From: a virus
Lineage: Duplodnaviria > Caudoviricetes
Strand: one strand, 5' to 3'
DNA length: 64,000 bases
IMG/VR virus record: IMGVR_UViG_3300050142_000050
Location: 1 to 64,000 of that record
The position numbers and the translations under genes were made by a program. A model generated the notes under the pieces. The model made no database searches. It had not been told where the DNA came from and saw only the letters and a list, made by a program, of their open reading frames with translations. Positions 7,324 to 59,028 of this stretch are shown here, in pieces (the stretch's first letter is position 1; each line of letters begins with the position of its first letter).

Positions 7324-7403
7324 ACCATGACTACCTCTCCTGACAAGGAATCAATTGATCTGACGAGTAACCTGACCGCAGTAGCGAATCAATAACAAAT
7401 AGT

Positions 7404-7450
7404 AGGAGGAGGGGCGTCTGCCCCTCCTCCTCTCTATCCTTATTTTTTTG
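7404..7450 (+). terminator. Intrinsic terminator between convergent genes
   Basis: 12-bp stem aggaggaggggc/gcccctcctcct followed by a T-rich run. Confidence 0.7.
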
Positions 7451-8024
7451 GTTTCTTCGCATTCTGGATGACATCTCCTACGAAGTCTCGTCTGATCATA
7501 CCGACACCATGAGCGATGGCATCGATCTCATGTTCGGAGATTTCTGTGGAATCTGTACGAGCCAGGAATGATACTGACATATAGGCCTTACGCATAGCGT
7601 CCTTATCGGCCGCTCCAGAGCCCGTCAGAGCCTTCTTAGAGATAGTCGGCGGTACTTCTACCACATCGAGCTTACACTCGCTCCAGGCGGCTCTGCGGAG
7701 CTGATGGATGGCCAATGTCAAAGAGACGAATGCACTCATGAACTTACATGCGAATGCTCCTTCAGAACAGACTACATTAGGTTTGAGTTCACGGATGAGT
7801 TCTGAGTATTCCTCATAGATAGCCACCAGGGTGCAGAACTGCTTCTGATAGATCTTGAGCATGTCTTTGAGACGCCTCACGATCTTGGTACCATCGATGG
7901 TACCGTGCTTGAGCACTGTGACTTTGAGAGGATGGAGGCTATCCACTCTGAGATAGGCCCACCCTGACACGGTAGTAGCAGGATCGATCGCCAGAACAGT
8001 GAATGGGAGAGGTGGGGCCATCAT
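7440..8024 (-). CDS. ruvC: RuvC-like Holliday junction resolvase
   Basis: LAIDP (catalytic D), CSEG (E), SKKALTGSGAADK and HEIDAIA motifs. Confidence 0.85.
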   Translation of the reverse strand: MMAPPLPFTVLAIDPATTVSGWAYLRVDSLHPLKVTVLKHGTIDGTKIVRRLKDMLKIYQKQFCTLVAIYEEYSELIRELKPNVVCSEGAFACKFMSAFVSLTLAIHQLRRAAWSECKLDVVEVPPTISKKALTGSGAADKDAMRKAYMSVSFLARTDSTEISEHEIDAIAHGVGMIRRDFVGDVIQNAKKPKK

Positions 8025-41260: not shown

Positions 41261-41627
41261 TAACTATTAGTCCTACGTCATCGAGAGGTGACGGTAAATA
41301 TCTCCTTAATTGCGGGGAAGTCTCATTAAGTTCTCACACACCAAGTGGATCATGGAAACATGATAATCCATGGCGACGCTAATTACGTCGGTACGGTAAA
41401 AGATGTGAGATAGAGAAAATCCGCAGCCAAGTGCCTAAGTCCTTCTTGGATATGGTAAAGGTTCAACGGCCATCGCAGGCATGCGAGTAGGGATCGAGTG
41501 ATCCCGAAATGGGAGACCCCTCCTCTGGAGGGTGAAGATATGGTCTGTTCCTACATGAGAATGTAGGCGGAGCTGCCTCTATATGAGGACAAGCCGGGTG
41601 AGTCTAACGAGCTCACTGGACATCAAG
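41261..41627 (+). ncRNA. Group I intron (367 nt, no homing endonuclease) in the nvRNAP beta' gene
   Basis: P1 ggat|taa-cta-tta-gtcc with U.G at the splice site; P aattgcggggaa 41308, Q aatccgcagc 41418, R gttcaacggccat 41461, S aagatatggtc 41535; terminal G; splicing restores NAD-YDGD. Confidence 0.92.
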
Positions 41628-41804
41628 TATGACGGGGACACGCTGGCAGGGATTCTGCTGGTAGAATGGGAGATGGTAAAAGCCATGCGGCGTATGTCGA
41701 CCGACAATCTGATCTGGGATCGCAACACAGGGCGAGTCAGCGAGGAAATCGGTGTGTCCAAAGACGTCGCTCAGGTCATGAATAGGTTCTTGGGAGTTCT
41801 TTAA
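41628..41804 (+). CDS. nvRNAP beta' N-terminal subunit, exon 2
   Basis: Begins YDGDTL, in frame after the intron-terminal G (58 aa; spliced product 499 aa). Confidence 0.88.
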   Translation, partial: YDGDTLAGILLVEWEMVKAMRRMSTDNLIWDRNTGRVSEEIGVSKDVAQVMNRFLGVL

Positions 41805-41859
41805 CTTAATAGATCACCATGATCATTTGAGTTAGAGGTAAGAGAACGGGGAACAACAG

Positions 41860-42471
41860 ATGGCAATTATCCGTATCAATCCAGGTGTTTCTTCGGGATA
41901 CGGGATGCCGAGTCTTTCGACGTTGATGGGATCTGGTGTGAGTGGTAGTGTCTTTGACAGTATCAACACCAATGCTCATGACGCTTTGTTCGCAGAGCGT
42001 TTTGCAGGGTTGCACCAGAACTTCATGGATCTCCATGTCAAGCCACTCGAAGCGGTGGCTCGTGAAGTAGGTGGTCTGTTCAATCAGGCTACTAACCCCA
42101 ACGTCTATCGACCACTGATCTCGGAGAATGACTTCTATGCAATTCCAAACTGCATGGAACTCCCGATCATGATGATGCCTGAAATGCGTAAGCTCCTAGT
42201 GGAGGGACGCATCAATGGTTTCGGCTATACCCCGGAAGATATCCCGGAAGACGACTCGTTCGGGCGAGTGCTCGATCGATTCCACGTACCCGACGTGGAA
42301 GCTGCATCCAATAAGGATGGCTATTTCACAGTGACTGCCAGGTTCGAAGAATTCGACCCTGTGTTGGACGACACGCAATTCTACGCATTGCGCCGTACTC
42401 GCGGTGCTATCCGTAAGTTGTTGGAAGACACGGAGCTCGATCCGACGGACATCGGCACGATTCGTGGGTGA
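41860..42471 (+). CDS. Conserved chimallivirus core hypothetical protein
   Basis: Follows the beta' gene; GRINGFGY motif; synteny. Confidence 0.6.
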   Translation: MAIIRINPGVSSGYGMPSLSTLMGSGVSGSVFDSINTNAHDALFAERFAGLHQNFMDLHVKPLEAVAREVGGLFNQATNPNVYRPLISENDFYAIPNCMELPIMMMPEMRKLLVEGRINGFGYTPEDIPEDDSFGRVLDRFHVPDVEAASNKDGYFTVTARFEEFDPVLDDTQFYALRRTRGAIRKLLEDTELDPTDIGTIRG

Positions 42472-42533
42472 TAGTGGAGGGTCCTAGGACCCTCCACTCT
42501 TTCCCTATAATTTTTTATCGAGGAGACTCTATC

Positions 42534-42803
42534 ATGAGTAAACATATACTGACAGTCGACAAGAGACTCGCGGTTTCTTCGATCGTGATCCCGATGATCC
42601 TCCATAACCAGGGTATGAGATATCTCGGCCACCGTATGGACGTAGAGGCGGTCAGTAATACCGACGGTGAGTTTGTCGTATCCTACGCTTACTCCGACAT
42701 CGATCCTGAGCGTAGTGATGATGATCTGAGTACCATCCGCATGCTACATAAATCTCATTATAGCATGATGTGGGATGACATATACGAAGTCGGTGAGCTG
42801 TAA
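42534..42803 (+). CDS. Small hypothetical protein
   Basis: GAGGAG RBS, ATG 42534. Confidence 0.6.
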   Translation: MSKHILTVDKRLAVSSIVIPMILHNQGMRYLGHRMDVEAVSNTDGEFVVSYAYSDIDPERSDDDLSTIRMLHKSHYSMMWDDIYEVGEL

Positions 42804-42821
42804 CGACGAAAGGGTCGACCT

Positions 42822-43598
42822 ATGTCCGGAGTAGAAGTACAACTCAAGATGACTGGTCCTGAAGAGGACCTCAATACCCTCTATGAGGGACTCAAGAGAA
42901 CAAGGTGGCTCAACATCCCATTCGGACCTCATTGTCCTCCTGGGATAGAAGGTATCACTTCCAAGCTTATGAAAGAGCTTGATCCCGAAGTTCCAGGTGT
43001 GAAACTCTTACGTGAGGGTGGTTATACCTGCGTCTACGACTGGATGAAGAAGAATTGGGGTACTGAGCATGCTGAGATCACACGGGTCGATAAGAAGACC
43101 GTGGTCGAAGTACGGATCGATCCGGGTCATGACAACGTATATCCCATCTTGAACCACATCCGTGCTCAGTTTCCTAATGTCACCTTCGACTATGCTGATA
43201 GCGACACATTTGGTGTAGCTTATGAGCAGCAATATACACCAGGGATGATCCACATCCCGATCAAAGAGGAGACCATGAGTCATCTCAGTCTCGATCGGTC
43301 GTATGAGTTCGGGGATCCTGATTATACCTGGGATGGTAAACCCCTGACTATGTATGAAAGAGATCAGCTGTTCGAAAGAGATATGGAACATCTCAATGCC
43401 ACTTATGAGATAGAGTGTTATTGTTGTACCGATAAACAGTTCTATCCTGGATTTGGGTATGTACCCGATGTCGAAGCTGTGAGTGATAATGCTGGATATT
43501 TCGAGATAACAACTCGGACTAACGAGTTCTGCCCGCCTATGCCGGATGAAGTGATGAGATCACACAGAGTACTATATGCCCTAACGAATCAAACCTGA
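42822..43598 (+). CDS. DUF1281/YubB ferredoxin-like domain protein
   Basis: YDWMKKNWGT motif and ...FPNVTFDYAD. Confidence 0.55.
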   Translation: MSGVEVQLKMTGPEEDLNTLYEGLKRTRWLNIPFGPHCPPGIEGITSKLMKELDPEVPGVKLLREGGYTCVYDWMKKNWGTEHAEITRVDKKTVVEVRIDPGHDNVYPILNHIRAQFPNVTFDYADSDTFGVAYEQQYTPGMIHIPIKEETMSHLSLDRSYEFGDPDYTWDGKPLTMYERDQLFERDMEHLNATYEIECYCCTDKQFYPGFGYVPDVEAVSDNAGYFEITTRTNEFCPPMPDEVMRSHRVLYALTNQT

Positions 43599-43603
43599 GG
43601 ATA

Positions 43604-44026
43604 TTGGTCATGGTAGGAATTCTGACTCTAGGCGGTAGTCTCACGATCACCGACCCACTGCGCATCATCGCTTATGTCATCAGGATGGCATGCTCAGTAC
43701 CAGCAGGTGCTGTGGATGATCTAGGTGGCTACATCTATTCCTTCAGGGAAATGGCCGGTCGACTGGGTCATGATCCTGATGGTCTGGCAGCTGAGATGAC
43801 ACGGTCCCTCAATGGTACCTACAGGCGCATCTTCACCGATACTCGGAGCGTGGTCGCATCTGTGACGGTCACTAAGTATGAGGATACTCGTACCTATGAC
43901 TTGAAACTCAATGTGATGTTCTCCAAAGAGAATGGGGATCTCGATACGCTAGGTACTGACATCACGATCGAAAACGGACAGATCGTCGTACCGACTGGTT
44001 CATTGGATCAGTATTTTGCAGACTAG
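43604..44026 (+). CDS. Conserved chimallivirus hypothetical protein
   Basis: Synteny within the chmA-nvRNAP block. Confidence 0.55.
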   Translation: MVMVGILTLGGSLTITDPLRIIAYVIRMACSVPAGAVDDLGGYIYSFREMAGRLGHDPDGLAAEMTRSLNGTYRRIFTDTRSVVASVTVTKYEDTRTYDLKLNVMFSKENGDLDTLGTDITIENGQIVVPTGSLDQYFAD

Positions 44027-44090
44027 TTAGGAGATAGTGGATTTATACTCTACCTCTCCATCGGCATGATATGCAATAAGGAGATATCCC

Positions 44091-44729
44091 ATGTCGGAAG
44101 AAAAAGAAAAACAACCCATCAGTCTGGAATTCTTCGACCTGTGTCGTACTGAGTTCATTCAGGATCTGGATGGACCCATCGTACTGTCAGCTTCGGAGTT
44201 CGCTCCTTATCAGGAGGCATTCTATCCTGACAAAGAGCGGTATGAGAATGATGGCGAGTATCGTAAGCATCTGTCTCAGGTGCGTGCGGCAGCTCAGTCG
44301 CAGTTGCGGTGGTCGCCCTATCGTTATTTCATCATCGTGAGTGATACCAATCGCGATGAAGTACTCCTGACGACTATCCCGATCTTCAATCGGATCAGTA
44401 GCGATCGGTCGGAACGACTCTCTCGGCGTCAACCTGGCGGTAGTCCTCTGGCTAATAAACTGGCGGATCTGGATGCAGTATCCAGCTTCGAGTCGCTCAT
44501 GGAGAGTAATCATACCCCAGAGATGGTGGAATACTTCCAGAAGGCCAATATGCGGACCAAGGTCTTGCATACCCTCTGGATGACAAAGACCGCTACTGAT
44601 GCACAGCTCGCAGAGCGTGGTTATAAGCGTGTCGATGGTGTGATCTATCCCCTCGAGGATGATCCTGAGGCCCCCAAGCCGGTAGGTACTATCGTACCCA
44701 CACTCGAGTTCGATGACGATGAGGACTGA
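44091..44729 (+). CDS. Conserved chimallivirus hypothetical protein
   Basis: AAGGAG RBS; upstream of sbcD; acidic C-terminus. Confidence 0.65.
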   Translation: MSEEKEKQPISLEFFDLCRTEFIQDLDGPIVLSASEFAPYQEAFYPDKERYENDGEYRKHLSQVRAAAQSQLRWSPYRYFIIVSDTNRDEVLLTTIPIFNRISSDRSERLSRRQPGGSPLANKLADLDAVSSFESLMESNHTPEMVEYFQKANMRTKVLHTLWMTKTATDAQLAERGYKRVDGVIYPLEDDPEAPKPVGTIVPTLEFDDDED

Positions 44730-45870
44730 ACCTAAGTTCCTCATGATGTCCGATCTCCACTATGGCTCTAGGGATATTCCTCCGCATGAGATGGCGGATG
44801 CTTTCAGGAAGACTGTGTTCCCCATGGTCGGTGATGTTGACTTGATCTGCATCAATGGGGACTTCTACGATGATGCGATTGAATTTGACTCCGTCACATT
44901 CGATTGTGTCTATAATCTGATCGTGGATTTGATGCGCGAGTGCCAGCAACATGGGACTAAGTTGAGACTCATGCAAGGTACTTGGACGCATGATCGTGGT
45001 CAGGTCCAGAAGTTCGATCTTTTCTACAAGAGCCATCAGTTCGACTTTGACTTCCGTTTCGTCAGGAATATCGATTTTGAGGAGATCTCCTTTGGGGAGA
45101 AGACTCTTCGATTTATGTATGTCCCTGACGATATCGGTTACACCTCTTCTGAAGATGCCGTACAGGCTATCAAGGAAAAGATGAGTGATCGAGGGTGGGA
45201 CTATGTCGATTATGGTTGTATGCATGACTTCTTTGACTTCACATTCCCCAAGAATGTGAGCACTGAATACCGTCGTGTATATCGAGAGGAACAATTCCCA
45301 TTCGTCCATAAAGCGATCAATGTGGGTCATGTCCATCAATACCGAGTAGGTCCGATGAGTAAGGCCATCTCCAATGGTGGATTCGATCGCTATGTCCATG
45401 GTGACGAAGATGCTAAGGGGATGATCCTCTATGTCGATAAGGAAGATAGCTACACGGCCACTTTTGTGGAGAACAAGTTTGCAGCTGTCTTTGACACATT
45501 GGTGATCCCAGAGAGTCTCACGACTGAACAGATCACCAAGCTCATCACAGATCATCTCAATAGTCTCGCGACTGACCGCAGAGTCAATCTGAGGTTTGTG
45601 GTGGACACGATCAATAAGTGGTCAGTGATCCGTGAGTGGATGAGGGATAATTACCGAGACGTCAGATGTTCGATGAAGAGATCAAAGACTGTCACTCCGA
45701 TCAAGATGGTCAATGGTCCCCTCCTCACGACCAGCAGTAGTGCAGAACCTGAAGAGATTCCCACTCCTGCTAATCTGGCTACTTTGGTAAAAGCCATGCT
45801 CAATCCTGAAGATCCAATCACGATCGATGAGATCCAGAAACATTTGGATGGTCCTGTAGGAACGTCCTAG
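44713..45870 (+). CDS. sbcD: SbcD/Mre11-like metallophosphoesterase nuclease
   Basis: SDLH, NGDFYD, GTWTHD, MHD and GHVH phosphoesterase motifs. Confidence 0.87.
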   Translation: MTMRTEPKFLMMSDLHYGSRDIPPHEMADAFRKTVFPMVGDVDLICINGDFYDDAIEFDSVTFDCVYNLIVDLMRECQQHGTKLRLMQGTWTHDRGQVQKFDLFYKSHQFDFDFRFVRNIDFEEISFGEKTLRFMYVPDDIGYTSSEDAVQAIKEKMSDRGWDYVDYGCMHDFFDFTFPKNVSTEYRRVYREEQFPFVHKAINVGHVHQYRVGPMSKAISNGGFDRYVHGDEDAKGMILYVDKEDSYTATFVENKFAAVFDTLVIPESLTTEQITKLITDHLNSLATDRRVNLRFVVDTINKWSVIREWMRDNYRDVRCSMKRSKTVTPIKMVNGPLLTTSSSAEPEEIPTPANLATLVKAMLNPEDPITIDEIQKHLDGPVGTS

Positions 45871-45887
45871 TCTAGGGATGGTATTCC

Positions 45888-46808
45888 ATGAGGCAATTTC
45901 CAGATAAGACTAAAATGCCCCTCTCACAAGACGGGAGTGAGGTCATCCGTGGTTCTTCCATGGGTTTCAACCTCATCCTGAAATTGTGGGAGGAGGCATC
46001 TTTGGTGGATATCAATCCGAGGACGAATGCGATCCTCGTGTCGGTAGCTACCATATTCCGAAACGTGTGGGATACCCCCAACATCGATCGGAGTAAGATG
46101 AGTGAATGGGTACTCAACGACATCTTCATGCTTGCTGACTATGTGGATACCTATCTGCATCATACAAGCATGGTCCATGAGATGAAGCGTAAGCTTCCCA
46201 TCATCATCTATTTTCCCAAATACAGCGCTATCAGAGAGGATAGACGTAAGCCCCTCACTGATCGTGACAAACTCTTCGAAGAGGCCTATACGGCCTTCAG
46301 TAAGCGAGGGGTGATAGATGGTCAAGTAGTCCACCAGACACCTAAGTGTAAGGTGTTCACCTCGATTGTGGGGTCTGCTCACGGATTACCCTTCCGAGAA
46401 CTAGCAGCTCAGTTGCGCATGTACTCCACACTGTCCGACGTCCTATATACTCCGGGTTCTCCGTCCTATCTCATTAGTCACAATGACTTGGACTTCTATT
46501 TCCTGGACATCGTCAGGAACTCGTCCATCTTGCGCAGTCATACTGGCGCACTGATCGGTAAGAAAGATCTTGCGAAGAGGATAGATTCCAGTGGGATAAT
46601 TCCTTTCAATCCTCTAACGCATGGTATGTTTGGTGACAAAGTCATGGTGAAAAGACTCCTCGATATCAAGGGGAAGAAACTCATCATGGATGCGGCAGCC
46701 AAAGAGAATTGGTTGATCCGCTCTGAAGGAGATATCGCTCGAAGTGTCGCCAAGATACTCTCGATTCCCCTGTCGGATGTGATGAAAATGCGCATCCGTG
46801 GAGTGTGA
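45888..46808 (+). CDS. Conserved chimallivirus protein (phiKZ gp66-like)
   Basis: Position after sbcD; TIFRN, YFPKY, SH..LDF, LRSHTG and IPFNPLT motifs. Confidence 0.55.
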   Translation: MRQFPDKTKMPLSQDGSEVIRGSSMGFNLILKLWEEASLVDINPRTNAILVSVATIFRNVWDTPNIDRSKMSEWVLNDIFMLADYVDTYLHHTSMVHEMKRKLPIIIYFPKYSAIREDRRKPLTDRDKLFEEAYTAFSKRGVIDGQVVHQTPKCKVFTSIVGSAHGLPFRELAAQLRMYSTLSDVLYTPGSPSYLISHNDLDFYFLDIVRNSSILRSHTGALIGKKDLAKRIDSSGIIPFNPLTHGMFGDKVMVKRLLDIKGKKLIMDAAAKENWLIRSEGDIARSVAKILSIPLSDVMKMRIRGV

Positions 46809-46857
46809 TATTCTATGAATAACCCAGGCCGTAACTGGCCTTTTTGAGGGAACCTGT

Positions 46858-47607
46858 ATGTCTGATAAGCCCCAATATGCGAAGACCGAGTTTGGCGATA
46901 TCGTCCACAATAGTCTGGTCACTTCGACTGCCAAGGAAAATCGTGAGGCCAAACTGAGCCTCAGCGTCTTCAAGGGCAATGCCTCATTTTCGGTCAATAT
47001 CGGTACTGGTGGTTCGCCCTGGCGTCAGGGTCTGACTGCTCCCTACCGCATCGCTATCGCTGCGGTACTGCGTGAGATCCGCAAACAACCCAACACCTGT
47101 CGCCAGACCATCGGTGTGAAGGCTTTCGAGAAGGATCCCCAGACAGGTCGTCTCTCTCCAAAGCCCACCGGTACGATCACGATCGGTATCGATGATCAGA
47201 TGACCCTCTTCATCGAGCTGGCCTTCAACACCCTCAATGGTGGCCAGCGTCTCACCTTCCCGATCAAGATTCCAGGTACTCTGGATATGTCGGAAACCTC
47301 GCTGACCGAGCGTGATCTGATTTGCATCTGCATCGACTATGTGATCGATGGTCTGATCACCCAGGCAGGTCTGGGCGTACGACTCTCGTCCGTGCGCTCG
47401 CAGCGTCCTGGTGGCGGTGGTGGTAACTGGGGTGGCAACAACCGTCAAGGCGGTGGTGGCGGTGGTTGGAATGGCGGCGGCAACAACGGCGGTGGCCAGC
47501 GCCAGGGTGGCTGGAACGGTGGAAACTCCGGAGGCGGTAGCTCTGGTGGTGGCAACAATGGTGGCGGTGGCGCTGCCAGCGACGATGACGACGGTATCGC
47601 GTTCTAA
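46858..47607 (+). CDS. chmC: ChmC-like nucleic-acid-binding protein with a Gly/Asn-rich tail
   Basis: Immediately upstream of the gp68-like gene; GGGGNWGG repeats and an acidic DDDDGIAF end; assignment by synteny. Confidence 0.55.
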   Translation: MSDKPQYAKTEFGDIVHNSLVTSTAKENREAKLSLSVFKGNASFSVNIGTGGSPWRQGLTAPYRIAIAAVLREIRKQPNTCRQTIGVKAFEKDPQTGRLSPKPTGTITIGIDDQMTLFIELAFNTLNGGQRLTFPIKIPGTLDMSETSLTERDLICICIDYVIDGLITQAGLGVRLSSVRSQRPGGGGGNWGGNNRQGGGGGGWNGGGNNGGGQRQGGWNGGNSGGGSSGGGNNGGGGAASDDDDGIAF

Positions 47608-47695
47608 TCGCACAATCACAGACAGAGGGTGGGCCACACGGCCCACCCTCTAGACTATGGATTATCCTTCAGTATACTGAATGTGATTTAATCCT

Positions 47696-47710
47696 CATAT
47701 TACTCACATG
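47696..47710 (+). promoter_or_regulatory. Putative early promoter
   Basis: catattac tcaca tg, upstream of the gp68-like subunit gene. Confidence 0.65.
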
Positions 47711-47792
47711 ACCATTAAACTTGCTGATGGTTTCTCTGAAACTTAAATAGTTTCCATCACAAATTGATATGTAATATAGCGAGGGGTCATCT

Positions 47793-49481
47793 ATGCTGAA
47801 CATCATCACTACAGCGACGACTGCCGGTAAACGAGAGTTTTCGGCATCGATTCGTTATCTGACTAAAGGGGAAATGTCCCCAGACGTCACGTTCATGGTG
47901 AGGTCCTTCAAGAAGTGCTCTACCCCAGAGAAGGGAGAGAAGACTGAGGACTGGGAGGACGAAAGCGACAGCGAGACTGTCAAGTCCATGTATCCTGCCA
48001 ATCTGTTCTTCAACAAGTTGACCGACGAAGAGCAGGGTGAACTCTACGACATGTATGTCAGGGTGAAAGACCTGATCGGTCGTATGAATCTGGAGAACTA
48101 CCGTGTCATCCAGGATTTGATCCGTAAGCGAGTGACACAGACGCTCAAGGTCATCAATATCGCCAATCGGTTGGTGGAGTTTGCAGCGGATCCCATCTTC
48201 CTCTATCCGGACCTGACAGAAGCCGGTAAGGGTGCAAACCACACTGAGGAGCGGACCTACCATCACGGTGACTATCTGGTCCTCACGGGTATTTCTATCC
48301 TGAGCAAGATCGTCTACCCAATCTGCGGTGAGATCCACAATCTTCCTCGTATCATCGGGGATGAGACTCTCTTCGACATGATTGGGTTGGATATCATCGA
48401 ACCCACATTGGAGTCTGGTCCTTTTGGTCCTGTATACAACAAGCTCCAGAATACCATCCGCAAGACTGTCACGACCACTTTGGAGCGCCAGGATAAGGCA
48501 CTCAACAATCAGGCTCAGGATACTCGCTTCGTCTTGAGCCACTCGGGTGGATTTAAGGGTCGTTTCATCGACTCGGTTATCGCCCACATCATCACACGTA
48601 GGATGGCTTCCTTTAGCCCGTCCACTATGGTCAGGGGAAAACGCCCCAATGCGATGGTCTTCATCGACAATGCGATTACTCGTTCGACTGTGTCGAAGAT
48701 CGCTGGTATGAAGAAAGGTATGACAGTCGTACCTCGCTGGGAACTCAGTAGTGGTGATGGTGAGCAGGATAACGCATCCATGCTCGATCACATCTCACGT
48801 TCTGGGTCCAGGCCGATCGACTACTCGGTCATCACAGCTGTGAGCGCTGAGCGTCATGTCATCCCCAAGATGCTGGCTCTCTTCGATACACCGATCGATG
48901 TGTATTTGAGTGCGCTTGAGTATTATCGTATCCATCCCTTTGAGATCTCTTGCTTCACCCAGAGTATGGCGGCATCCTTTGCTGGTATGCGCTTTGGTGG
49001 ATCCAAGTGTCTCAACTGGCTACCCAATCCCATCTATGTACAGCTGGTTACGATCATGCAAATCTGGATGGTGCAAAATGGGTTGCATCGGGTGGCTTCC
49101 TTGTGCTCTGCGATCAACTCAGAGGACATCATCGATGCTGCGGACTCGACAGTACCGATCATCGCTATCCGTGAGCGTACGCCCATGGAGAAGGAATACA
49201 CGCTGTGCGAATCCTTGTTCCGGGGTAATGTCACCCGGGAAGTCGCAGGCTCCAAGAGGCGTGGAGCTAAGAAGGAAGTCGAAACCATCGGTTTTCGTAC
49301 CCTGATTTCCGGACTCGTCGAATGGCTCGGTCAGTACTCCCATAAGGAGAACATGGCTCCGAGTATCTGGAAGCTCAGGGGTGAAGAAGACTATCCCATC
49401 CACATGTCGGAATGTACAGTCGAGTCTACAATCATGGTCGACGTATGTCGTTACTATCTGATGATGCATAGCTCGACTTGA
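47793..49481 (+). CDS. nvRNAP promoter-specificity subunit (phiKZ gp68-like)
   Basis: 562 aa; synteny after chmC; no catalytic motif available to confirm. Confidence 0.6.
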   Translation: MLNIITTATTAGKREFSASIRYLTKGEMSPDVTFMVRSFKKCSTPEKGEKTEDWEDESDSETVKSMYPANLFFNKLTDEEQGELYDMYVRVKDLIGRMNLENYRVIQDLIRKRVTQTLKVINIANRLVEFAADPIFLYPDLTEAGKGANHTEERTYHHGDYLVLTGISILSKIVYPICGEIHNLPRIIGDETLFDMIGLDIIEPTLESGPFGPVYNKLQNTIRKTVTTTLERQDKALNNQAQDTRFVLSHSGGFKGRFIDSVIAHIITRRMASFSPSTMVRGKRPNAMVFIDNAITRSTVSKIAGMKKGMTVVPRWELSSGDGEQDNASMLDHISRSGSRPIDYSVITAVSAERHVIPKMLALFDTPIDVYLSALEYYRIHPFEISCFTQSMAASFAGMRFGGSKCLNWLPNPIYVQLVTIMQIWMVQNGLHRVASLCSAINSEDIIDAADSTVPIIAIRERTPMEKEYTLCESLFRGNVTREVAGSKRRGAKKEVETIGFRTLISGLVEWLGQYSHKENMAPSIWKLRGEEDYPIHMSECTVESTIMVDVCRYYLMMHSST

Positions 49482-49503
49482 CATCTCACTAGGTGAGGTA
49501 TTT

Positions 49504-50802: not shown

Positions 50803-50859
50803 ACAGCTGTTGTCCTATGAAAAAGGTGCTGTTTCAATTTTCACAAACGGGAGTTAATC

Positions 50860-52623
50860 ATGTCCTTTGAAATCCCTGCATCCATGCTCAGCTCGCCAGC
50901 AATCGCGCCAGCTTCGAGCACGACTTCCGGTTTTGGTACCCCCAATATGGCTGTGGAGCATGTACCTGAGCACCATGGGAGGAGTGGGCTCATCAAGTCG
51001 ATCGGTGAGCGCGCTGTGTTCATCTACTTCTTCGAAGGGGTGCCCAATCAGTTCCTCGATCAGGCTATCCGCCCCTACCATTACAACATCGATGACCGCA
51101 CAGCTTCGGTCACGGGTGACATGGTGCAGATGGTGATGGCCGCCAAGATACCAGTCGATGCCGCAGTGAAGAATATCAGCAATACAGTGAATCTGTCCGG
51201 GGCTATTATGCCTTCGACCGACATGCGGATGCAGTTTCAAGCATCACAACTCTCGGATAACTATCGTTTCCTGATGATCACCAGCGAGCAAGTCGGGAAA
51301 CCCATCGGTAATGCTGGTGGCCCAGGTACTCGAATTCGTCGCATCTATACTGGTGTCGTGATGGGAGGTGAACCGGTATCCAAGACTCTCTTCTTGGCTG
51401 GTAGACACTCGGATGCCATCAACCCTAACGCGGGTCTCCTCATCACCCAGAAGACGGTACTGAGTAACAGGGTATCGTACAATGGACTCGGAGTGAGTGG
51501 TGATCAGGTATCCGTCCGTGAGTCGAACAGCTACTACCACGGTACGCTTGCTAAGAACATGACTGTGCACAGTGCGAACGATCTCTCGAGTCGGGTAGCT
51601 TCCCTCATGCCCAACAACGTACTCGCAGGTGTGGAACTCGATATCGAGAATGGTCAGTATCTGGCGTCTCCGAGCTACGAGCTCGACGCATCGACGGATG
51701 TCGCTGCCACGACTATCTCGAATAAGTTCCATGGCGGTAAGCTCCACATGGAAAATCTGATCGGTGGGGCAATTAACGGAAATGTCGAGAACCAACGGAC
51801 ATCGATGGGATCCTTCGGTGTGGACTCGTACAGCCGTAATTATGAGCAGTCGGCGAACATCGCGCCGCTCGAGTGCTTCCGTCATGCACTGACGCAGCAT
51901 ACTGCGCCCAGTACTTTGTCGGAGCTGGACTTCGATGAACACCAACTCGTGAATCTCCGTCAGCTCGATCAGAAGTTCGGCAATGATCTGGAGATGACCA
52001 TCGACCGTTTGAACCGCCCGATGTATTACGGCACGGCTGATCAGACTCAGAATGGTATCATCAATCAGTTGTCGACGATGCTGATCCACATGGTATCGAC
52101 AGTGATGACCGACTATGGTCTGGGTGACATGCGCTTCGACTATCGAGCCATGAAGGATCCAGTGTTCGGGAATATGGTCCCGTCATGGAACATCCAGCAC
52201 TCCGCACCGTTCTGGCCGACTGCTACTGAGACGGAAGTTCTCATGCGCACGGATGCTGCGAAGAGTGTTCTGGAGTCGACGGTCTTTAAGATGATCTTCG
52301 ATTCCTATCACGACTTCTACGTCTCCATGCGCGTGGATACGACTGGTCATTCCGCATGTCGTCTTTCCCTCGTCGAACAGGGAATGATCTCGGAGGTCGA
52401 CTTCGAGATCCCGACTGCATTGGGTGGTCTCGTATCGCCGATGATGGCTGACTCCCCGGCATTCGCCTACAACGGTGGTCGACTCATCGAGTTCTGGGAT
52501 GCGGTATCCCCGGATGCCAATCAGATCTCGAACAATCCGGATATCGTGACAGCGAATGCTGCACGCGCCGCTGTCCCGGAGTCGAACTTCCGTGACGGTC
52601 TGCGTACCGGTTGGAATATCTGA
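50860..52623 (+). CDS. picA: PicA/Imp1-like nuclear import factor (phiKZ gp69-like)
   Basis: AVFIYFF...DQAIRPYHYN resembles my recollection of the gp69 family; synteny between gp68-like and gp70-like genes. Confidence 0.5.
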   Translation: MSFEIPASMLSSPAIAPASSTTSGFGTPNMAVEHVPEHHGRSGLIKSIGERAVFIYFFEGVPNQFLDQAIRPYHYNIDDRTASVTGDMVQMVMAAKIPVDAAVKNISNTVNLSGAIMPSTDMRMQFQASQLSDNYRFLMITSEQVGKPIGNAGGPGTRIRRIYTGVVMGGEPVSKTLFLAGRHSDAINPNAGLLITQKTVLSNRVSYNGLGVSGDQVSVRESNSYYHGTLAKNMTVHSANDLSSRVASLMPNNVLAGVELDIENGQYLASPSYELDASTDVAATTISNKFHGGKLHMENLIGGAINGNVENQRTSMGSFGVDSYSRNYEQSANIAPLECFRHALTQHTAPSTLSELDFDEHQLVNLRQLDQKFGNDLEMTIDRLNRPMYYGTADQTQNGIINQLSTMLIHMVSTVMTDYGLGDMRFDYRAMKDPVFGNMVPSWNIQHSAPFWPTATETEVLMRTDAAKSVLESTVFKMIFDSYHDFYVSMRVDTTGHSACRLSLVEQGMISEVDFEIPTALGGLVSPMMADSPAFAYNGGRLIEFWDAVSPDANQISNNPDIVTANAARAAVPESNFRDGLRTGWNI

Positions 52624-52710
52624 AAAAATATTGAAATATCATCGCAAATAGTGTGACGTAGTGAGGGCAGCTGCCCTCACTACTACACTTGGAATTATGG
52701 AAGGTTATCC

Positions 52711-53970
52711 ATGGCTTACACAATCAAAGATGTGACCTCCGATTTGCGGAAGGTCTTGACCCTCACTGGTGAGGTCGATGCAGACAGTGATGGGTTTATG
52801 GTCCATCGGGATGACCGCACTCAAATCAAGCTGGTGCGCAGCAAGAAAGATGACGACTCGCGGGCTGTGGTCCTGTTCCAGGATCCTCTCCCCAAGGGTG
52901 ACAATTTCGTCTTCAATCCCTACTCAGAGTCGATGGGTAGCTCGTCTATCCCCTCGAACTTCTTCTACAAGGCGGCTCGGACCAATTTGTCCTTCACCAT
53001 GATGGACACAGTCATCTGGCTCGCCAAGGAACTGCTGGCGCACAAGAAGGCTCTGGAAGCTAAGGAGGAACATCGACTCTCCTCGGCTATCCTGCGCCTT
53101 ACGTCGGTGAAGTTGGATGGTAAGCGTGGTCAGATCATCGATGCTGTCGATGATGAGTTCATCAATGAGCTCAAGAAGATCACCGATGCGGTCGGTCCTG
53201 AACTGACCCACATCACCTATCACAATCGCCAGATGCGTGCGACGGCAGTTGTGGGCTGTCTGTCCGAGTCCACCTGGGATGAGAACTACGGTCGTGGTAT
53301 CCGCAAGAAGTCTCTCCAGGCTTTCAAGGCTCTGATCATGGGTCTCCTGGGTATCAAGACTCCTGCGGATCTCGACACAATCGAGGTTCGTTACGACGTC
53401 GACTCAGGGGCGGCTGCAAAGTTCACGACCATTGTGACTCTGTATGTGAAGATCTACTCGGGCTTTGCTGAGGTTCTGGCCAATGTTCTGATCCATGATC
53501 TGAACCTGTCCGACCTTATGGAAGTGGTGGACAATATGTCCAACGCCACTCGTCTAGCGAAGCATTCCTCACAGCCTATCCTGCCGGTGGCGTCTCCCAA
53601 GTCGACAGCCCCCGCCAATACAGCGCATGTCACCAGTCCTTCTGGCTACAGTGCGCCCGTGGTGGCATCCTACGGCGCCAATCGTTCGAACTACTCGGCA
53701 CCTGCGGTACCTGGGACGACTGTTGGTCGTTACTCGGCTCCGATGGCGGCAGCTTCGCACTACCAAGCACCTCAGGCGCACTATGCTCCGGCATATACTC
53801 CTCCGGTCAATTATGGTGCGCCCATGTATCCGCACAATCCAGCATTCGCTCCTGCGGGTTATGGCGCACCTATGGGCTATGCTGCTCCCATGCAGCCTCT
53901 ACCGTTGATGCAGACGAACAGCACCGTTCATCGTCCCGGCAACAGTGCCGCCAACCGTCGCGGTATCTAA
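52711..53970 (+). CDS. Conserved core protein (phiKZ gp70-like) with a YxAP low-complexity tail
   Basis: FNPYSE motif; synteny; Ala/Pro/Tyr-rich C-terminus. Confidence 0.55.
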   Translation: MAYTIKDVTSDLRKVLTLTGEVDADSDGFMVHRDDRTQIKLVRSKKDDDSRAVVLFQDPLPKGDNFVFNPYSESMGSSSIPSNFFYKAARTNLSFTMMDTVIWLAKELLAHKKALEAKEEHRLSSAILRLTSVKLDGKRGQIIDAVDDEFINELKKITDAVGPELTHITYHNRQMRATAVVGCLSESTWDENYGRGIRKKSLQAFKALIMGLLGIKTPADLDTIEVRYDVDSGAAAKFTTIVTLYVKIYSGFAEVLANVLIHDLNLSDLMEVVDNMSNATRLAKHSSQPILPVASPKSTAPANTAHVTSPSGYSAPVVASYGANRSNYSAPAVPGTTVGRYSAPMAAASHYQAPQAHYAPAYTPPVNYGAPMYPHNPAFAPAGYGAPMGYAAPMQPLPLMQTNSTVHRPGNSAANRRGI

Positions 53971-54023
53971 TGACAAATGGGAGGGTAGCTGATGCTACCC
54001 TCCTATCTAATCGAGGGTGATTT

Positions 54024-55217
54024 ATGATATCGGTTAACCTAGAATTACCCTTCAGTAAAATTGCATCCGAAAGTCAGCGATTCTACATCGATCGTGAGAC
54101 GATCATAAGTGGCCTACCAGGGCCTTCTTCTGTCGGAGGCGCACTTCCACCAGCAGATGGCTCTCTAACGCCTGACAGTGGCTTAAAACGCATTTCAGAC
54201 GATGTAGGGACACTGCACCTGGGATCGTGTGCGATGATACCCAGTGGGACACTCGTCAAACACATCAGCGCCCCTACGAGTTACAAGTACATATGTGAAG
54301 CTGTCTACCGGGTAGCTGGTGGTATATCGACATGTATGTATCTCACACATATCGGTCCTCTCGATCATAAGACAGGTGTGTCCACTCCTGCGGTCGAGAA
54401 GTTGACATATAGTGACAGGCCTCCTTATCGGGCGATTGGATTACCTATCCAGTCGTTACTCGATCCCACAGAGTTCGGTGTAAGGAGTGAGGTCGATAGT
54501 AAAGACTTCAACATCGTTCCTCCTATCTACGACGTGAGGGCTCTCGATAGCTTCCTCACAGGGCATCACTATATGCAGCATAGGAAGCCCTACTCGCACA
54601 ACTTCAATCCCATCAGGGGAGATATGCCGCACATCTATCGCAGTGCGGTCCATGGGGAATTCCAAGAAGATGTGAGGGGTTGGAGATACTCCTATGGTGA
54701 CGATCCATTCTTGGGTTTCGATACCCGATGTCTTTACCAGACAGTTGTGGAGAACACCAAGCACGCCACGATTGTCTACAATGAAGACCTCTTCGATGAA
54801 CCTGCTATCGATAGCGTACGGGGACTACGAGAGTCGTTCCATGTGACTGTCGATATGGACAATTGTCGATATAGGTTACCTCAATCCCACGAGCTGAATC
54901 TAGTCGACTATCTCGACCCTTATCGACTCATCTTTGGGACCACCCCTGGTAGAGATAGAAATATCGCTAACCGGATCTGCTCGATCCTCCACAAAGCCGC
55001 AAAGAGTTACTACTGCTTCCTGATCAGGAGAGGATATTTCGAGAACTGGCCAGTAGCTAGGCCAGTGACGATGACGCTGATGAAGAATCATCTCGAAGAG
55101 TTCGTTATCGTAGTGGATGATCAAAGAGTGGGTGAGACCTTCGTATTTTACACAGCAGTTCCTATTCTCATGTTGACGACATGGGCTGTGGAATCTGTAC
55201 TCGGGAAGGGCAGCTAA
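54024..55217 (+). CDS. Hypothetical protein
   Basis: GAGGG RBS; followed by a terminator. Confidence 0.65.
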   Translation: MISVNLELPFSKIASESQRFYIDRETIISGLPGPSSVGGALPPADGSLTPDSGLKRISDDVGTLHLGSCAMIPSGTLVKHISAPTSYKYICEAVYRVAGGISTCMYLTHIGPLDHKTGVSTPAVEKLTYSDRPPYRAIGLPIQSLLDPTEFGVRSEVDSKDFNIVPPIYDVRALDSFLTGHHYMQHRKPYSHNFNPIRGDMPHIYRSAVHGEFQEDVRGWRYSYGDDPFLGFDTRCLYQTVVENTKHATIVYNEDLFDEPAIDSVRGLRESFHVTVDMDNCRYRLPQSHELNLVDYLDPYRLIFGTTPGRDRNIANRICSILHKAAKSYYCFLIRRGYFENWPVARPVTMTLMKNHLEEFVIVVDDQRVGETFVFYTAVPILMLTTWAVESVLGKGS

Positions 55218-55240
55218 ATAGCGCCCTTCCTATTTTTTTT
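55204..55240 (+). terminator. Rho-independent terminator
   Basis: ggaagggc(a)gct-aaat-agcgcccttcc followed by tatttttttt. Confidence 0.8.
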
Positions 55241-55258
55241 GGTTTAAGGACTTTGCAC

Positions 55259-56293
55259 ATGACTGATCAAATGAAAGGTCCGTATTCCGTCTTCGAAGGT
55301 TATGCCGCAGAAGACTTAGGTGACAGTACGACTATCATCAAATTCGTGTCTGAAGACATCCTACCATCGAGCATCAATGGCGATATCGCAGCAGGGGTCA
55401 CCGACTCCGTGATCAATCTCAAGGATCATGCTGGTAATCCCATCACCAAGAAGATCTCGACCTCTAACCATCTACCTGCCACATGGATGGGTGGATCTAA
55501 CCGGCACAGTCCCCCTCTCATCCGAAAGGGTGAACCATTGGAGATCATCCAGTATCACGGTCAGGATAAGTACTTCTGGCGTGAGACTGGGATGGGTGGT
55601 ACATATCGGACCACCGATCGTATCTATCTCGAACTGTCATCTACTGATCCCAAAAAGCCAGGTGTGGTCAATGATGACACCAACCGATGGATCCTCTATG
55701 CTGATACTGACAAGAAGAAGTTCGGTATCCGAACGTCTATCGCTAATGGTGAGGTAGGTAAGTTCCATATCGAAGGTGATCTGACTGCTGGTACATTTAC
55801 CCTGACTGATGGTGAGGGCGATGACTCCAACAATGTCGTCTTCGATACGGGGGCTGATAGCGGTGTCCCTATATTCAGCGTGTCGCTGGGTGAGAAGGCA
55901 TCTTTCCAGATGACCAATCAGGATCTCATGATCAACATCCCTCGCAAGTTCATTGTGAAGAGCGGCGAACGAGTCTTGTTTGATTCTCCTCTCACAGTCT
56001 TCAACGAATCGAGGAAGGGCTCGATCATCTTCAATGCTCTCAATATGGCACTCAATGCCACATCATCATTGGTGATTACCTCAAGTGTCTTCTCGGCCAT
56101 CGTTTCTGCTACCAAGCTCATGGGTACCACAGTGCTCGATAAGCTGCGTGTCAGTAAGTTCGGGAAGGGACCTGTGGGGAGTGCCCCATCTCCTGTGTCA
56201 GTGGGCGATCCTTATTCAGCAGATGCCTCATCTCCGTCTGCATCACCAGATAGTGATCTAGGTACACCTGTCACTTCACTCCCCGTGGCTTAA
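55259..56293 (+). CDS. Baseplate central spike-like protein (phiKZ gp164-like)
   Basis: AAGGA RBS and ATG 55259; W...NRHSPPLIRKGE...YFW OB-fold motif followed by beta-helix-like repeats. Confidence 0.55.
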   Translation: MTDQMKGPYSVFEGYAAEDLGDSTTIIKFVSEDILPSSINGDIAAGVTDSVINLKDHAGNPITKKISTSNHLPATWMGGSNRHSPPLIRKGEPLEIIQYHGQDKYFWRETGMGGTYRTTDRIYLELSSTDPKKPGVVNDDTNRWILYADTDKKKFGIRTSIANGEVGKFHIEGDLTAGTFTLTDGEGDDSNNVVFDTGADSGVPIFSVSLGEKASFQMTNQDLMINIPRKFIVKSGERVLFDSPLTVFNESRKGSIIFNALNMALNATSSLVITSSVFSAIVSATKLMGTTVLDKLRVSKFGKGPVGSAPSPVSVGDPYSADASSPSASPDSDLGTPVTSLPVA

Positions 56294-56303
56294 GGAATAA
56301 GAA

Positions 56304-56849
56304 ATGATTTGGCCTTTTACAAAACGTCGGGATGTGATCGTCCCTGATCGAATGAGCGATATCTTCGCTGATGAATGCCGTGTGATTGAACGTCAGGTCA
56401 TTGCCTTGGCTATCAAGTTCAAGCTGGTGACTGCTGCGGATGATAAGACTGTCAAACTCAAGGTCTATGGTGAGATCGACGAGCCTTGGCGTGAAGTCGT
56501 ATTAATGACAGACTGGCGTACATTGATTGAGGCAGTGTCTGATCAGTGGTCAGGTGTCACTGAGGTGGCTGCCGGTACGAACAGTCTCATCGATGAGCGA
56601 GTCCATCCGATCAAGCTCCATGCTGAGTTCTGGAATGGGATACGTGATCTCCATCTGCGGATAGTGGGGTCAGTATCAGGTGATGCTCTGGCTACTGTCA
56701 AATCACGGATCTTCCGTGCTATGACTATCGGCTTCGATGAGAAGTTTGCCAAAGACATGTCCATCCTCATCGATGATCAGTATCCTGATCTCTGGGTAGT
56801 TGTGATGATCTCGATACTGTGTCGCAATTCCACACTCGACTATAACTGA
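56304..56849 (+). CDS. Hypothetical protein, spike-associated
   Basis: AAGGA RBS, coupled to the spike gene. Confidence 0.6.
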   Translation: MIWPFTKRRDVIVPDRMSDIFADECRVIERQVIALAIKFKLVTAADDKTVKLKVYGEIDEPWREVVLMTDWRTLIEAVSDQWSGVTEVAAGTNSLIDERVHPIKLHAEFWNGIRDLHLRIVGSVSGDALATVKSRIFRAMTIGFDEKFAKDMSILIDDQYPDLWVVVMISILCRNSTLDYN

Positions 56850-56884
56850 TATAGGTGAGGGGCGATGAGCCCCTCACCTATCTA

Positions 56885-57229
56885 TCAAATCACTTCTTCA
56901 GATTGTGAGGACATGAACTTTTGATAAAGATCACTGATGAAGCTATCCTCAGGGATAGACAGTGTGATCTGCTTACGGAACTCGAAATCATTGGGGATAC
57001 CATTGATCTTGAGGACGATCCATTCGATGTCATAGTGACGAGACATTTCCAATTTGAGGAATTGTCGCATCCGATAGGCATATCGTTCAGCTGTCTGAGG
57101 AGTCAGTTCGAATTTTGCTGAATTAGCGAGGATGTAGTCGATATGGTCATCGACGAATTGTACCCAGTCTGGATTGCTAGGACCATAGGTGAAGTCCAGA
57201 CACTGCTTGACGATTGATGTGATCGGCAC
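56885..57229 (-). CDS. Small conserved protein (LysM/baseplate-wedge-like)
   Basis: YRMRQFL...WIVLKINGI...L.IP pattern. Confidence 0.5.
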   Translation of the reverse strand: MPITSIVKQCLDFTYGPSNPDWVQFVDDHIDYILANSAKFELTPQTAERYAYRMRQFLKLEMSRHYDIEWIVLKINGIPNDFEFRKQITLSIPEDSFISDLYQKFMSSQSEEVI

Positions 57230-57301
57230 CAGTAGTCTCCATTAAATAAAATAGTTCCCACCATGCGATGGTGTGATCTTATTTCAGGGTGGTTGAAACG
57301 C

Positions 57302-57316
57302 TATATTACTACTCTG
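57302..57316 (+). promoter_or_regulatory. Putative early promoter TATATTAC-N5-TG
   Basis: tatattac tactc tg, upstream of the nvRNAP beta gene. Confidence 0.7.
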
Positions 57317-57404
57317 GAAATAGACCTGACAGGTGCTCACTTCCTCAAAATATAGGGTTCTCCAAAATAGGAGTTCTCTCTTTTCACAAAAGGGGTCAAC
57401 ACAA

Positions 57405-58667
57405 ATGCCTAGTAATATTGGCAAGGAATATCCCTATCTTGCAAACACCACAATGGACGTTCGTCTGTTGGGTATGCCATATCTACTCACATCGTTCCCA
57501 CAGCAGATCTCAGGATCTCGTGGTGACATGTACAACCACCACCAAGCACAAGCGATGGTGCTCAATAAGCCGGGTCTGGCTGGTGTGTTCTCTGGATTGG
57601 AACCTCAGTTCCGTGAACACATGGTGGAACCTCTAACGCGTCCGCATCGGGTGAAGGTCCTCAGGGTCATTCCGAAGTACCGCAGGGGTTTCATGGACAA
57701 CTGGGCCAAGAATTGTCCAGAGCGTTATGTGATCGTCGAGACAGAGGAAACCAATCCCAAGACCGGAAACAAGTTCGGTAGGTTGGACGTCTTGACGATC
57801 AGTACCTATTACGAAGGTGCTAATGGATTCGGCTATCTGCCGATCCTCAAGAATGTGGACAAGCTGACAGTCGGAGCCTATCTGGATCCTGACATGATCT
57901 TCTCCCATTCCCCTGGGATCATCGGTGACGATTATGGCTTCGGTGTGGATCTCAATGTGATCTATGGATCCTTTGCTGAGACCATCGAGGATGCTTTCGT
58001 CATCAGTGAATCAGCAGCGAAGAAGCTGGAGACCACTGAGGTCAAGTCCCACATCATCAATGTGGTACCTGATCGTCGTCCCCTCAACCTCTATGGTGAC
58101 GATAGTCTCCCGCAGTTCCTCCCCAACATCGGGGACTTCGTGCGTGAAGATGGTATCCTCTGCGGGCAGCGTCCTTCGCACTGGGCGACTGTGGCAGCTG
58201 ATGCTGATCCTAATGCCCTCAAGGAGGTATTGCCCTTCCAGGACAAGTTGTGGCGTCCTGCTGGCATGACTGGTGACACTAAGGTGATCGACGTCACCTT
58301 TGCAGCTAACCTGAACAACATCGGTGATTGTTATCCCCAAGTGGAGCGGCACATCAGCGACTATGTGACTGGGTGCTGTAAGTCACTGCTGGAAGTCTTC
58401 TACCAGTACTGTGAGCCGATTGGGAATCGTCCTCCTCTCCTCACTCCAACAAATCGCATGAACGAACTCTTCGTCCGTGCGTTCAAGCACTTCATCGGGA
58501 TGGGAGGACGCGATGTCCGTCTCGATGGTATCTTCAAGTCCGAGATGAAGCGTAGTCAGCTGGAAGGATTCGACGGACGTCCTGTCGAGTTCATTCAGGC
58601 TAAGGTGGTGACAGCTAAACGCCGTAAGGTGACTGCTACATCGAAGCTTACTGATAAATCGGGTGGT
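57405..58667 (+). CDS. nvRNAP beta C-terminal subunit (phiKZ gp71-73-like), exon 1
   Basis: SRGDMYNHHQAQA, GVDLNVIYGSFAETIEDAFVIS, ends KLTDKSGG; RBS and ATG at 57405. Confidence 0.87.
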
Positions 58668-59028
58668 TTACACTAAGCCTCCATAATCTGAGAAGGTTAT
58701 GGAAATCTCCTCTAATTGCGGGGAAGCCCTTAGAGCTCAAGATACCAAGTCTGAGAATAACTCTCTCAGATGGCCGATGTAATCAATCGGGTATGGTAAC
58801 AACTCTTGAGATTGGGTAATCGCGCAGCCAAGCAGGGCCTCTATGGGGTTTTGAAGGTCCAACGGCTAACCGCTTACCACGGTGTAGGAGTCAGTGACTC
58901 CGAAATGGGGAGCACCCTACTCTAACGAGAGGGTGAAGATATAGTCTGCTCACATGTGAGAGCATGTGCGGAGCTGCCTCTATACGAGGACGAGCCGGGT
59001 GAGTCTAACGAACTCACTGGACAGTAGG
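58668..59028 (+). ncRNA. Group I intron (361 nt, no homing endonuclease) in the nvRNAP beta gene
   Basis: P1 ggt|tta-cac-taa-gcc with U.G; P aattgcggggaa 58714, R gtccaacggcta 58857, S aagatatagtc 58936; terminal G; splicing gives KLTDKSGG-KGV, aligning with the beta motif KLAGRHGNKGV. Confidence 0.9.

Follow-up and report, generated by a model that had tools for sequence, protein, structure and literature searches.

A common 3' module in group I introns of jumbo-phage RNA polymerase genes: probable gene conversion between intron copies of one genome

The jumbo phages phiKZ and PhiPA3 are already known to carry group I introns in catalytic motifs of their RNA polymerase (RNAP) genes. In phiKZ three genes are interrupted: those encoding the beta' N-terminal subunit and the beta subunit of the non-virion RNAP (nvRNAP), and that encoding the beta' subunit of the virion RNAP. 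The respective layouts are gp55, gp56 (HNH), core and gp56.1; gp71, gp72, core and gp73; and gp180, gp179 and gp178. The endonuclease genes gp56, gp72 and gp179 of these introns have been annotated since 2002, as cited in PMC11512511 and bioRxiv 10.1101/2023.10.13.562163. In PhiPA3, the HNH endonuclease of the gp210 intron acts in competition between phages (Birkholz et al. 2024, PMC11620839). The DNA analyzed here, called the window, is a stretch of 64,000 nucleotides (positions 1 to 64,000 of the IMG/VR record IMGVR_UViG_3300050142_000050) from an uncultivated leaf-litter jumbo phage with a 249.6 kb genome that is about 89% complete. It contains two group I introns, intron A in the nvRNAP beta' gene and intron B in the nvRNAP beta gene, and with a third intron (C), found outside the window in the gene for virion RNAP beta', this phage has introns in the same three genes as phiKZ. 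Introns A and B have in common a 3' block with 95% identity, which is probably the result of recent short-patch gene conversion between intron copies of one genome. As in this phage, three homologous introns are present in one genome in phage T4 (td, nrdB and nrdD, also called sunY). The homology of the three T4 introns was reportedly described by Shub et al. in 1988, and Bryk and Belfort reportedly showed by experiment in 1990 that spontaneous recombination shuffles domains between T4 introns.

Introns A and B were found with the Rfam model RF00028 (group I intron, gathering score 50), with matches at 41251-41567 and 58658-58968 that span model positions 1-253, and their boundaries were read from the sequence within and around these matches. 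An earlier note on this DNA had placed both introns in active-site motifs, which agrees with our reading: intron A splits beta' at NAD/YDGD (the slash marks the insertion), exon 1 ending with AAU GCG GAU and exon 2 opening with UAU GAC GGG GAC, and intron B splits beta at KSGG/KGV, with GGU GGU before and AAA GGA GUC after the intron. P1, the first of the paired (P) elements, reads GGAU/UAA..UUAGUCC in A and GGU/UUA..UAAGCC in B; in both cases the last exon base U pairs with G, and the last intron base (41627 in A, 59028 in B) is G. Several further details given in that note were also recovered. An in-frame TAA lies inside P1 of each intron, the element AATTGCGGGGAA is identical in both (58714-58725 in B), and P7 carries a compensatory change (GGCCA with UGGUC in A, GGCUA with UAGUC in B) that turns a C-G pair into U-A. 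No open reading frame (ORF) of at least 45 amino acids lies wholly within either intron, in line with their description as endonuclease-free.

Removal of the introns rebuilds the motifs NADYDGD and KSGGKGV. Since the PHROG profiles lose no position at either join (phrog_2987, 6-418 followed by 419-474 for A; phrog_3295, 8-403 followed by 404-687 for B), the exact boundaries are independently supported. A Pfam search of the RNAP exons gave no match; PHROGs matched. With tblastn, beta' exon 1 finds PhiPA3 gp054, whose annotation notes similarity to phiKZ gp055, and beta exon 1 finds the PhiPA3 065 region, for which similarity to phiKZ gp071 is annotated; the matching beta subunit is labelled 'nvRNAP beta subunit 2' in Erwinia phage RAY. 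Protein identity to the nvRNAP beta' and beta of cultured relatives is only 25-28%. We can predict that A and B are self-splicing group I introns. Contigs from four leaf-litter DNA runs, covering 40900-59400, showed no joint over either intron and thus no intron-less allele, which does not imply absence as contigs drop rare variants; no differences are listed inside A or B in these contigs.

The earlier note regarded A and B as twins, a view that had to be abandoned. A whole-genome search revealed a third RF00028 match, at G000 109629-109968 on the minus strand (75.2 bits), and it is this third copy that encodes an endonuclease. Intron C extends over about G000:C1:109566-111358 (minus strand). 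Exon 1 of its host gene matches phrog_2986 (E = 5e-105) and, at 29% identity, the phiKZ gp180 region, and the insertion lies just after GADHDGDLTLVH, shortly past DHDGD. The 5' splice site is approximate, within a few bases of G000 111359; the candidate GUGCAU/A is uncertain, as the last exon U would pair with A and not with G in the best internal guide sequence. Between this splice site and the ribozyme core lies an ORF of 443 amino acids (111268-109937) with two HNH_3 matches, the first one weak. It is the only HNH_3 ORF of the genome and is homologous to intron ORFs of phiKZ, PhiPA3 and Bacillus phage AgentSmith. The search for free-standing endonuclease genes and further intron copies, proposed as a check in the earlier note, gave no match to GIY-YIG or PF01844 in the whole genome, and no further copy or complement of the A/B block elsewhere in it.

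The phiKZ introns share their family and 3' architecture with those of this phage, and their HNH ORFs are homologues of the intron C ORF. The site of intron B is identical to that in the phiKZ nvRNAP beta gene (DFHGG/KGV in phiKZ, DKSGG/KGV here). The phiKZ beta' site, N/ADFDGD, is two codons upstream of that of intron A, and intron C lies about eight codons further on than the phiKZ virion RNAP site, NAD/FDGD. The boundary of intron A equals that of the phiKZ gp180 intron and that of an intron in contig L028. Unlike A and B, the nvRNAP introns of phiKZ have endonuclease genes, which are placed between the 5' splice site and the core. Exactly at the site of intron B, PhiPA3 has an intron free of endonuclease genes (FHGG/KGVV; HQ630627, about 55005-55454, in misc_feature 065) that is 66.6% identical to B and has the UGGACA tail in common with it, whereas PhiPA3 gp054, the beta' homologue, is uninterrupted. 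The four RF00028 introns of PhiPA3 (HQ630627: 74590-74895, 116607-116900 and 191716-192004 on the minus strand, 55111-55404 on the plus strand) have no near-identical block, the maximal block identity being 0.71. The intron at 74.6 kb, which the record does not annotate as such, comes after ...VADLD where gp085 ends, and gp084 lies downstream of it. Introns of the same family also interrupt the same motifs (../FDGD, N/ADFDGDQ and ../KGV) in Goslar-like phages and in IMG/VR contigs L009, L016, L025, L028, L012, L013 and L033; their P9.1 and P9.2 stem sequences differ, and their identity to the A/B block is 76% at most. Contig L028 (IMGVR_UViG_3300012251_000001) has two introns about 25 nucleotides apart in one beta' gene (about 7270-7560, minus strand of the locus), the first at NAD/FDGD, the site of A, and the second about five codons after DGD, near the site of C.

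The identity profile of A and B confirmed the count of 53 identical positions out of 56 that had been noted for their 3' blocks. Outside the block, 223 of 330 positions (68%) are identical (Fisher p = 8e-6 for the contrast), the other segments being each 64-70% identical, and the last five nucleotides match at two positions. Among the 595 pairs formed by 35 distinct 3' domains (median identity 0.59, 99th percentile 0.80), A and B rank first with a block identity of 0.93. All other pairs that reach 0.87 or more in the block are nearly identical in the P9 hairpin as well; A and B reach only 0.64 there. The three introns resemble each other in a mosaic fashion. Informative sites support AB/C 48 times, AC/B 52 times and BC/A 52 times, and they are clustered in 73 runs, a number so low that it was never reached in 20,000 shuffles. 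In the P5/P4' and P7.2 regions it is A that resembles C. From P8 through P7' it is B that resembles C, including 13 consecutive BC sites (41514-41548), and the AB pairing holds at 21 of the 22 sites within 41569-41619. When 182 family introns are considered, each segment has its nearest relative in a sister copy of the same genome: for the block, A-B at 0.93 with the next best at 0.76, and for the 100 nucleotides upstream, B-C at 0.79 with the next best at 0.73.

The same pattern is found in other genomes. We defined a conversion signature as a block identity of at least 0.90 together with an identity below 0.70 in the upstream 100 nucleotides. It was observed in 3 of 55 same-genome pairs versus 13 of 16,001 different-genome pairs (odds ratio 71, p = 2e-5). 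One of these three same-genome pairs belongs to phiKZ. There, the gp55 and gp180 introns are 100% identical over about 85 nucleotides, from P7' through P9.2 to 4-5 nucleotides before the 3' splice site, versus 62% upstream (NC_004629, 50450-50535 and the gp180/gp178 intron, the latter filed as L055, minus strand). The block-sharing pair is thus formed by the two beta' introns in phiKZ and by the nvRNAP beta' and beta introns here. Contig L060 has the same pattern as phiKZ, with high block identity and low identity upstream. In this phage, in phiKZ and in L060 the common tract ends a few bases before the splice site and intron-specific sequence follows. Such observations are expected from short-patch conversion between dispersed copies. 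Gene conversion is favoured because of the mosaic similarity of the three introns, their same-genome nearest relatives and the parallel in phiKZ.

The earlier note named equal conservation of the 3' block in unrelated phage introns as evidence against its proposal, and this comparison gave a divided result. The architecture and the P9.2 loop are indeed found in T4 td and nrdB, phiKZ, PhiPA3 and the Bacillus phage, whereas the block sequence is not conserved (median 59%, best unrelated match 76%, AgentSmith). Introns A and B each contain P9, P9.1, P9.2, a UARCGA loop and a GAACA-like tail, i.e. the elements of a td-type 3' domain; 3' of P9.2, the UGGACA tail is followed by five bases up to the terminal G. 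Hairpins P7.1 and P7.2 lie between P7 and the 3' strand of P3 (41473-41505 in A, 58869-58901 in B), in an insertion of the Rfam alignment. By the P7.1/P7.2 and P9-P9.1-P9.2 features examined, A, B and C are provisionally assigned to the T4 td type, subgroup IA2-like. The same 3' layout was read in T4 td and nrdB, three phiKZ introns, four PhiPA3 introns, AgentSmith and 150-odd IMG/VR contigs, and many of these introns interrupt the RNAP motifs named above. T4 td and nrdB present P9, P9.1, GGG and P9.2 with the loop AUUARCGA, then GAACAU, with a td-nrdB block identity of 0.64; the T4 introns differ in interrupting nucleotide-metabolism genes and in carrying GIY-YIG or other endonuclease ORFs in other loops. 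A blastn search with the 95-nucleotide 3' domain against the phage collection gave nothing at E <=1, the query being too short for that database.

Among 153 distinct blocks, 126 distinct P9.2 stems were counted. Because pairs 2-6 of this stem are paired in 86-93% of the blocks, with all four Watson-Crick types in use and so many different stems, the P9.2 stem can be taken as real and its sequence as free to vary. Since stems vary freely over the 153 blocks, family-wide constraint does not, as judged from these comparisons, account for the identity of A and B. The P9.2 loop has the consensus N-U-A-R-C-G-A. The R of this loop and the final base of the P7.2 tetraloop (RAGY) covary, fitting in 140 of 141 parsed introns (C-G 77, U-A 56, U.G 7, C.A 1). 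The two main classes contain 30 and 38 distinct P7.2 stems. The set with the G variant was fetched by the P9.2 loop (L9.2) motif alone, and the predicted C in the P7.2 loop (L7.2) was then found. This covariation indicates that the P9.2 loop base-pairs with the P7.2 loop, which adjoins the guanosine-binding helix P7. Because of this pairing beside P7, we infer that the 3' module may act as a clamp bringing the 3' splice site to the guanosine-binding site. Pairing of the P9.2 loop with a UUAG-like stretch after P5 was also considered and rejected: the two are well complementary in C, less so in B and only poorly in A, and the stretch overlaps the P5 stem. Nothing usable was found in the literature on earlier descriptions of the L7.2-L9.2 contact or of P9.1/P9.2 conversion.

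We therefore arrive at the following picture, which we regard as probable. Three paralogous group I introns, predicted to be self-splicing, occupy catalytic motifs of the phage's own RNAP genes, C alone carrying an HNH homing endonuclease gene and A and B representing endonuclease-free forms. The P9.2 loop CUAACGA pairs with the P7.2 tetraloop and would thereby hold the 3' domain, and with it the 3' splice site, in place at the catalytic core. Family-wide constraint acts on the loop and on the architecture, the stem sequences being free, and recent non-reciprocal recombination between copies probably produced the A/B block identity, stems included. This exchange would be one of several by which the three copies became mosaics of each other. 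The introns, their joins, the mosaic, the same-genome excess and the loop covariation are observations; splicing, the clamp, and the mechanism and direction of the recombination are deduced from them.

Several points weigh against this explanation. The cultured relatives are only distantly related, as said above, and no close relative was found, leaving a conversion with neither date nor direction. The 5' edge of the tract falls between P9 and P9.1, with little visible flanking homology; a single simple conversion is thus not demonstrated, and several events or template switching are possible. The patterns with which the family introns were fetched called for the P7' strand and the P9.2 loop motif, so that conservation of this loop is in part built in, and the sample includes related sequences, which inflates the counts. 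Finally, constraint at the sequence level seems to act on some P9.1 types, perhaps through a role in docking. A P9.1 hairpin variant, AGUUCAUAAGAGAAC, is nearly unchanged in unrelated genomes, namely in the T4 nrdB intron (L050) and in L023, L034, L060 and L164.

Homogenisation of the 3' module is seen in this phage, in phiKZ and in contigs L060, L155 and L164, with tracts ending a few bases before the 3' splice site. It is conceivable, and we propose it only tentatively, that homogenisation of the 3'-terminal part (P7'/P9-P9.2) is a recurrent, 3'-end-targeted process in phage genomes with several introns. Such conversion could be started by the HNH nickases of the family cutting near occupied insertion sites, or it could be selected for equal folding of the 3' clamp in the pre-mRNAs of the RNAP subunits. 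No description of 3'-module homogenisation in phiKZ or its relatives was found in the literature, nor any of the stretch common to the phiKZ gp55 and gp180 introns.

Besides recent gene conversion, the earlier note had considered selection for a common trans-acting partner. Such a partner, which could be a splicing cofactor, a chaperone, a maturase-like protein or an RNA, would recognise the sequence of the block in both endonuclease-free introns and so keep it identical. Of these two suggestions the first gains from the mosaic, from the rank among 595 pairs and from the approximately 70-fold same-genome enrichment, and the second appears unlikely. All three differences between the A and B blocks (one in a loop, one in an internal loop, one changing a closing U.G pair to U-A) are neutral for structure, as a partner would allow, and a differing need for a cofactor is conceivable since A and B have no ORF of their own and C has one. 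However, intron C of the same genome has different P9.1 and P9.2 stems, the phiKZ block is common to the gp55 and gp180 introns, both endonuclease-bearing, and not to the gp71 intron, and stems vary freely in the family with compensatory changes. The genome holds no other copy or complement of the block, and the mosaic reaches other segments with other pairings of A, B and C.

It is slightly less likely still that A and B each took their 3' module from an outside donor, for example the intron of a co-infecting phage. The block of the unrelated Bacillus phage intron is of the same type, and the 13 different-genome pairs with high block and low upstream identity would fit such a transfer; against it, no intron among the 182 of the family exceeds 76% identity and the signature is strongly enriched within genomes. 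This would still be recombination, differing from gene conversion between sister copies only in the donor. A recent whole-intron duplication, for example by ectopic homing or reverse splicing into a second RNAP gene, followed by much slower evolution of the 3' block, would explain why A and B are of similar length and share their family architecture. It is very improbable, however: outside the block, and so also in the adjacent P9 hairpin with its many compensatory changes, A and B are only 64-70% identical, elsewhere segments of A and of B have their closest relative in C and not in each other, conservation of the block within the family does not exceed that of other parts (median 0.59), and the position of B at the exact phiKZ/PhiPA3 site points to an old insertion. 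That the two introns form a regulated double splicing checkpoint delaying nvRNAP assembly, and hence middle and late transcription, is as hard to credit: insertion in catalytic motifs and early stops, by which unspliced RNA would give truncated proteins missing part of the motif, would suit it, but no regulatory element or factor was identified, and both active-site insertion and early stops are usual in phage group I introns and explained by homing-site conservation (PMC12908238). The related idea that both genes would be immunised against rival homing nucleases is plausible, because HNH-bearing introns of phiKZ occupy the same beta site and a site two codons from the beta' site; it is a general consequence of any occupied homing site. 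The coordinates of the features are collected in Table 1.

Table 1. Exons, introns and intron elements of the nvRNAP beta' and beta genes (window coordinates)
Feature	Position	Strand	Remarks
Exon 1, nvRNAP beta' N-terminal subunit (phiKZ gp55 homologue)	39938..41260	+	phrog_2987 positions 6-418, E = 2e-65; ends ...PNAD
Intron A, group I, 367 nt, without ORF	41261..41627	+	RF00028 76.5 bits; U.G pair at 5' splice site, terminal G
In-frame TAA, intron A	41261..41263	+	first three intron bases, in P1; ORF 39938..41263 ends here
J3/4-P4 element, intron A	41308..41319	+	AATTGCGGGGAA; same sequence in intron B
P7.2 hairpin, intron A	41490..41505	+	loop GAGU (41496-41499); proposed partner of P9.2 loop
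P9 hairpin, intron A	41550..41567	+	64% identical to intron B counterpart
3' block, intron A	41567..41622	+	53/56 identical to 58968-59023; ends 5 nt before 3' splice site
P9.1, intron A, first part of common block	41568..41596	+	CGG/CCG helix around inner CCUC/GAGG hairpin (RNAfold)
P9.2 hairpin, intron A	41598..41616	+	stem GUGAGU/GCUCAC, 7-nt loop CUAACGA (41604-41610)
Exon 2, nvRNAP beta' N-terminal subunit	41628..41804	+	58 amino acids plus stop; starts YDGD; phrog_2987 positions 419-474
Exon 1, nvRNAP beta subunit (phiKZ gp71 homologue)	57333..58667 (start codon putative)	+	phrog_3295 positions 8-403; ends ...KLTDKSGG
Intron B, group I, 361 nt, without ORF	58668..59028	+	RF00028 76.4 bits; junction comparison
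In-frame TAA, intron B	58674..58676	+	third intron codon, in P1
P7.2 hairpin, intron B	58887..58901	+	loop AGU
3' block, intron B (P9.1-P9.2)	58968..59023	+	folding and identity to intron A block
Exon 2, nvRNAP beta subunit	59029..60243	+	starts KGVSAVI; phrog_3295 positions 404-687

Some other observations were made in the window. An ATG in the P9.1 loop of intron A opens a frame of 73 amino acids (41583-41804) that runs in phase into exon 2; at the position of this ATG, intron B reads ACG. The frame is probably due to chance, since 15 stop-free codons have a probability of about 0.5. In run X23 a second, divergent strain is present, with substitution clusters at 45681-45955 and 57266-57605 at a contig depth of 4-7 and none listed inside either intron. 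The search for close relatives of the phage in viral contigs, made at this locus with beta' exon 1, found none. At 47430-47540, the contigs of all four leaf-litter runs end or continue with unlike, glycine-codon-rich sequence, which suggests a variable low-complexity repeat within the ORF at 46858-47607. A match to the Rfam tRNA model (37.4 bits) at 2819-2882 has an anticodon loop of four bases versus seven in the model.

For annotation, these results mean that jumbo-phage genes of the gp55, gp71 and gp180 types should be joined over such introns. What is added to the known introns of phiKZ and PhiPA3 is modest, namely the recurrent conversion of the 3' module and the L7.2-L9.2 contact. The covarying P7.2 and P9.2 loops give this module a structural role, and segments appear to be exchanged between the intron copies of one genome, the 3' domain repeatedly so, including in the model phage phiKZ. 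The phage described here is a very distant relative of phiKZ, with introns in the same three RNAP genes and one of them at an identical codon boundary. Because so distant a relative shares these genes and one boundary, the catalytic motifs of RNAP may be regarded as homing sites that are either long-lived or repeatedly re-invaded.

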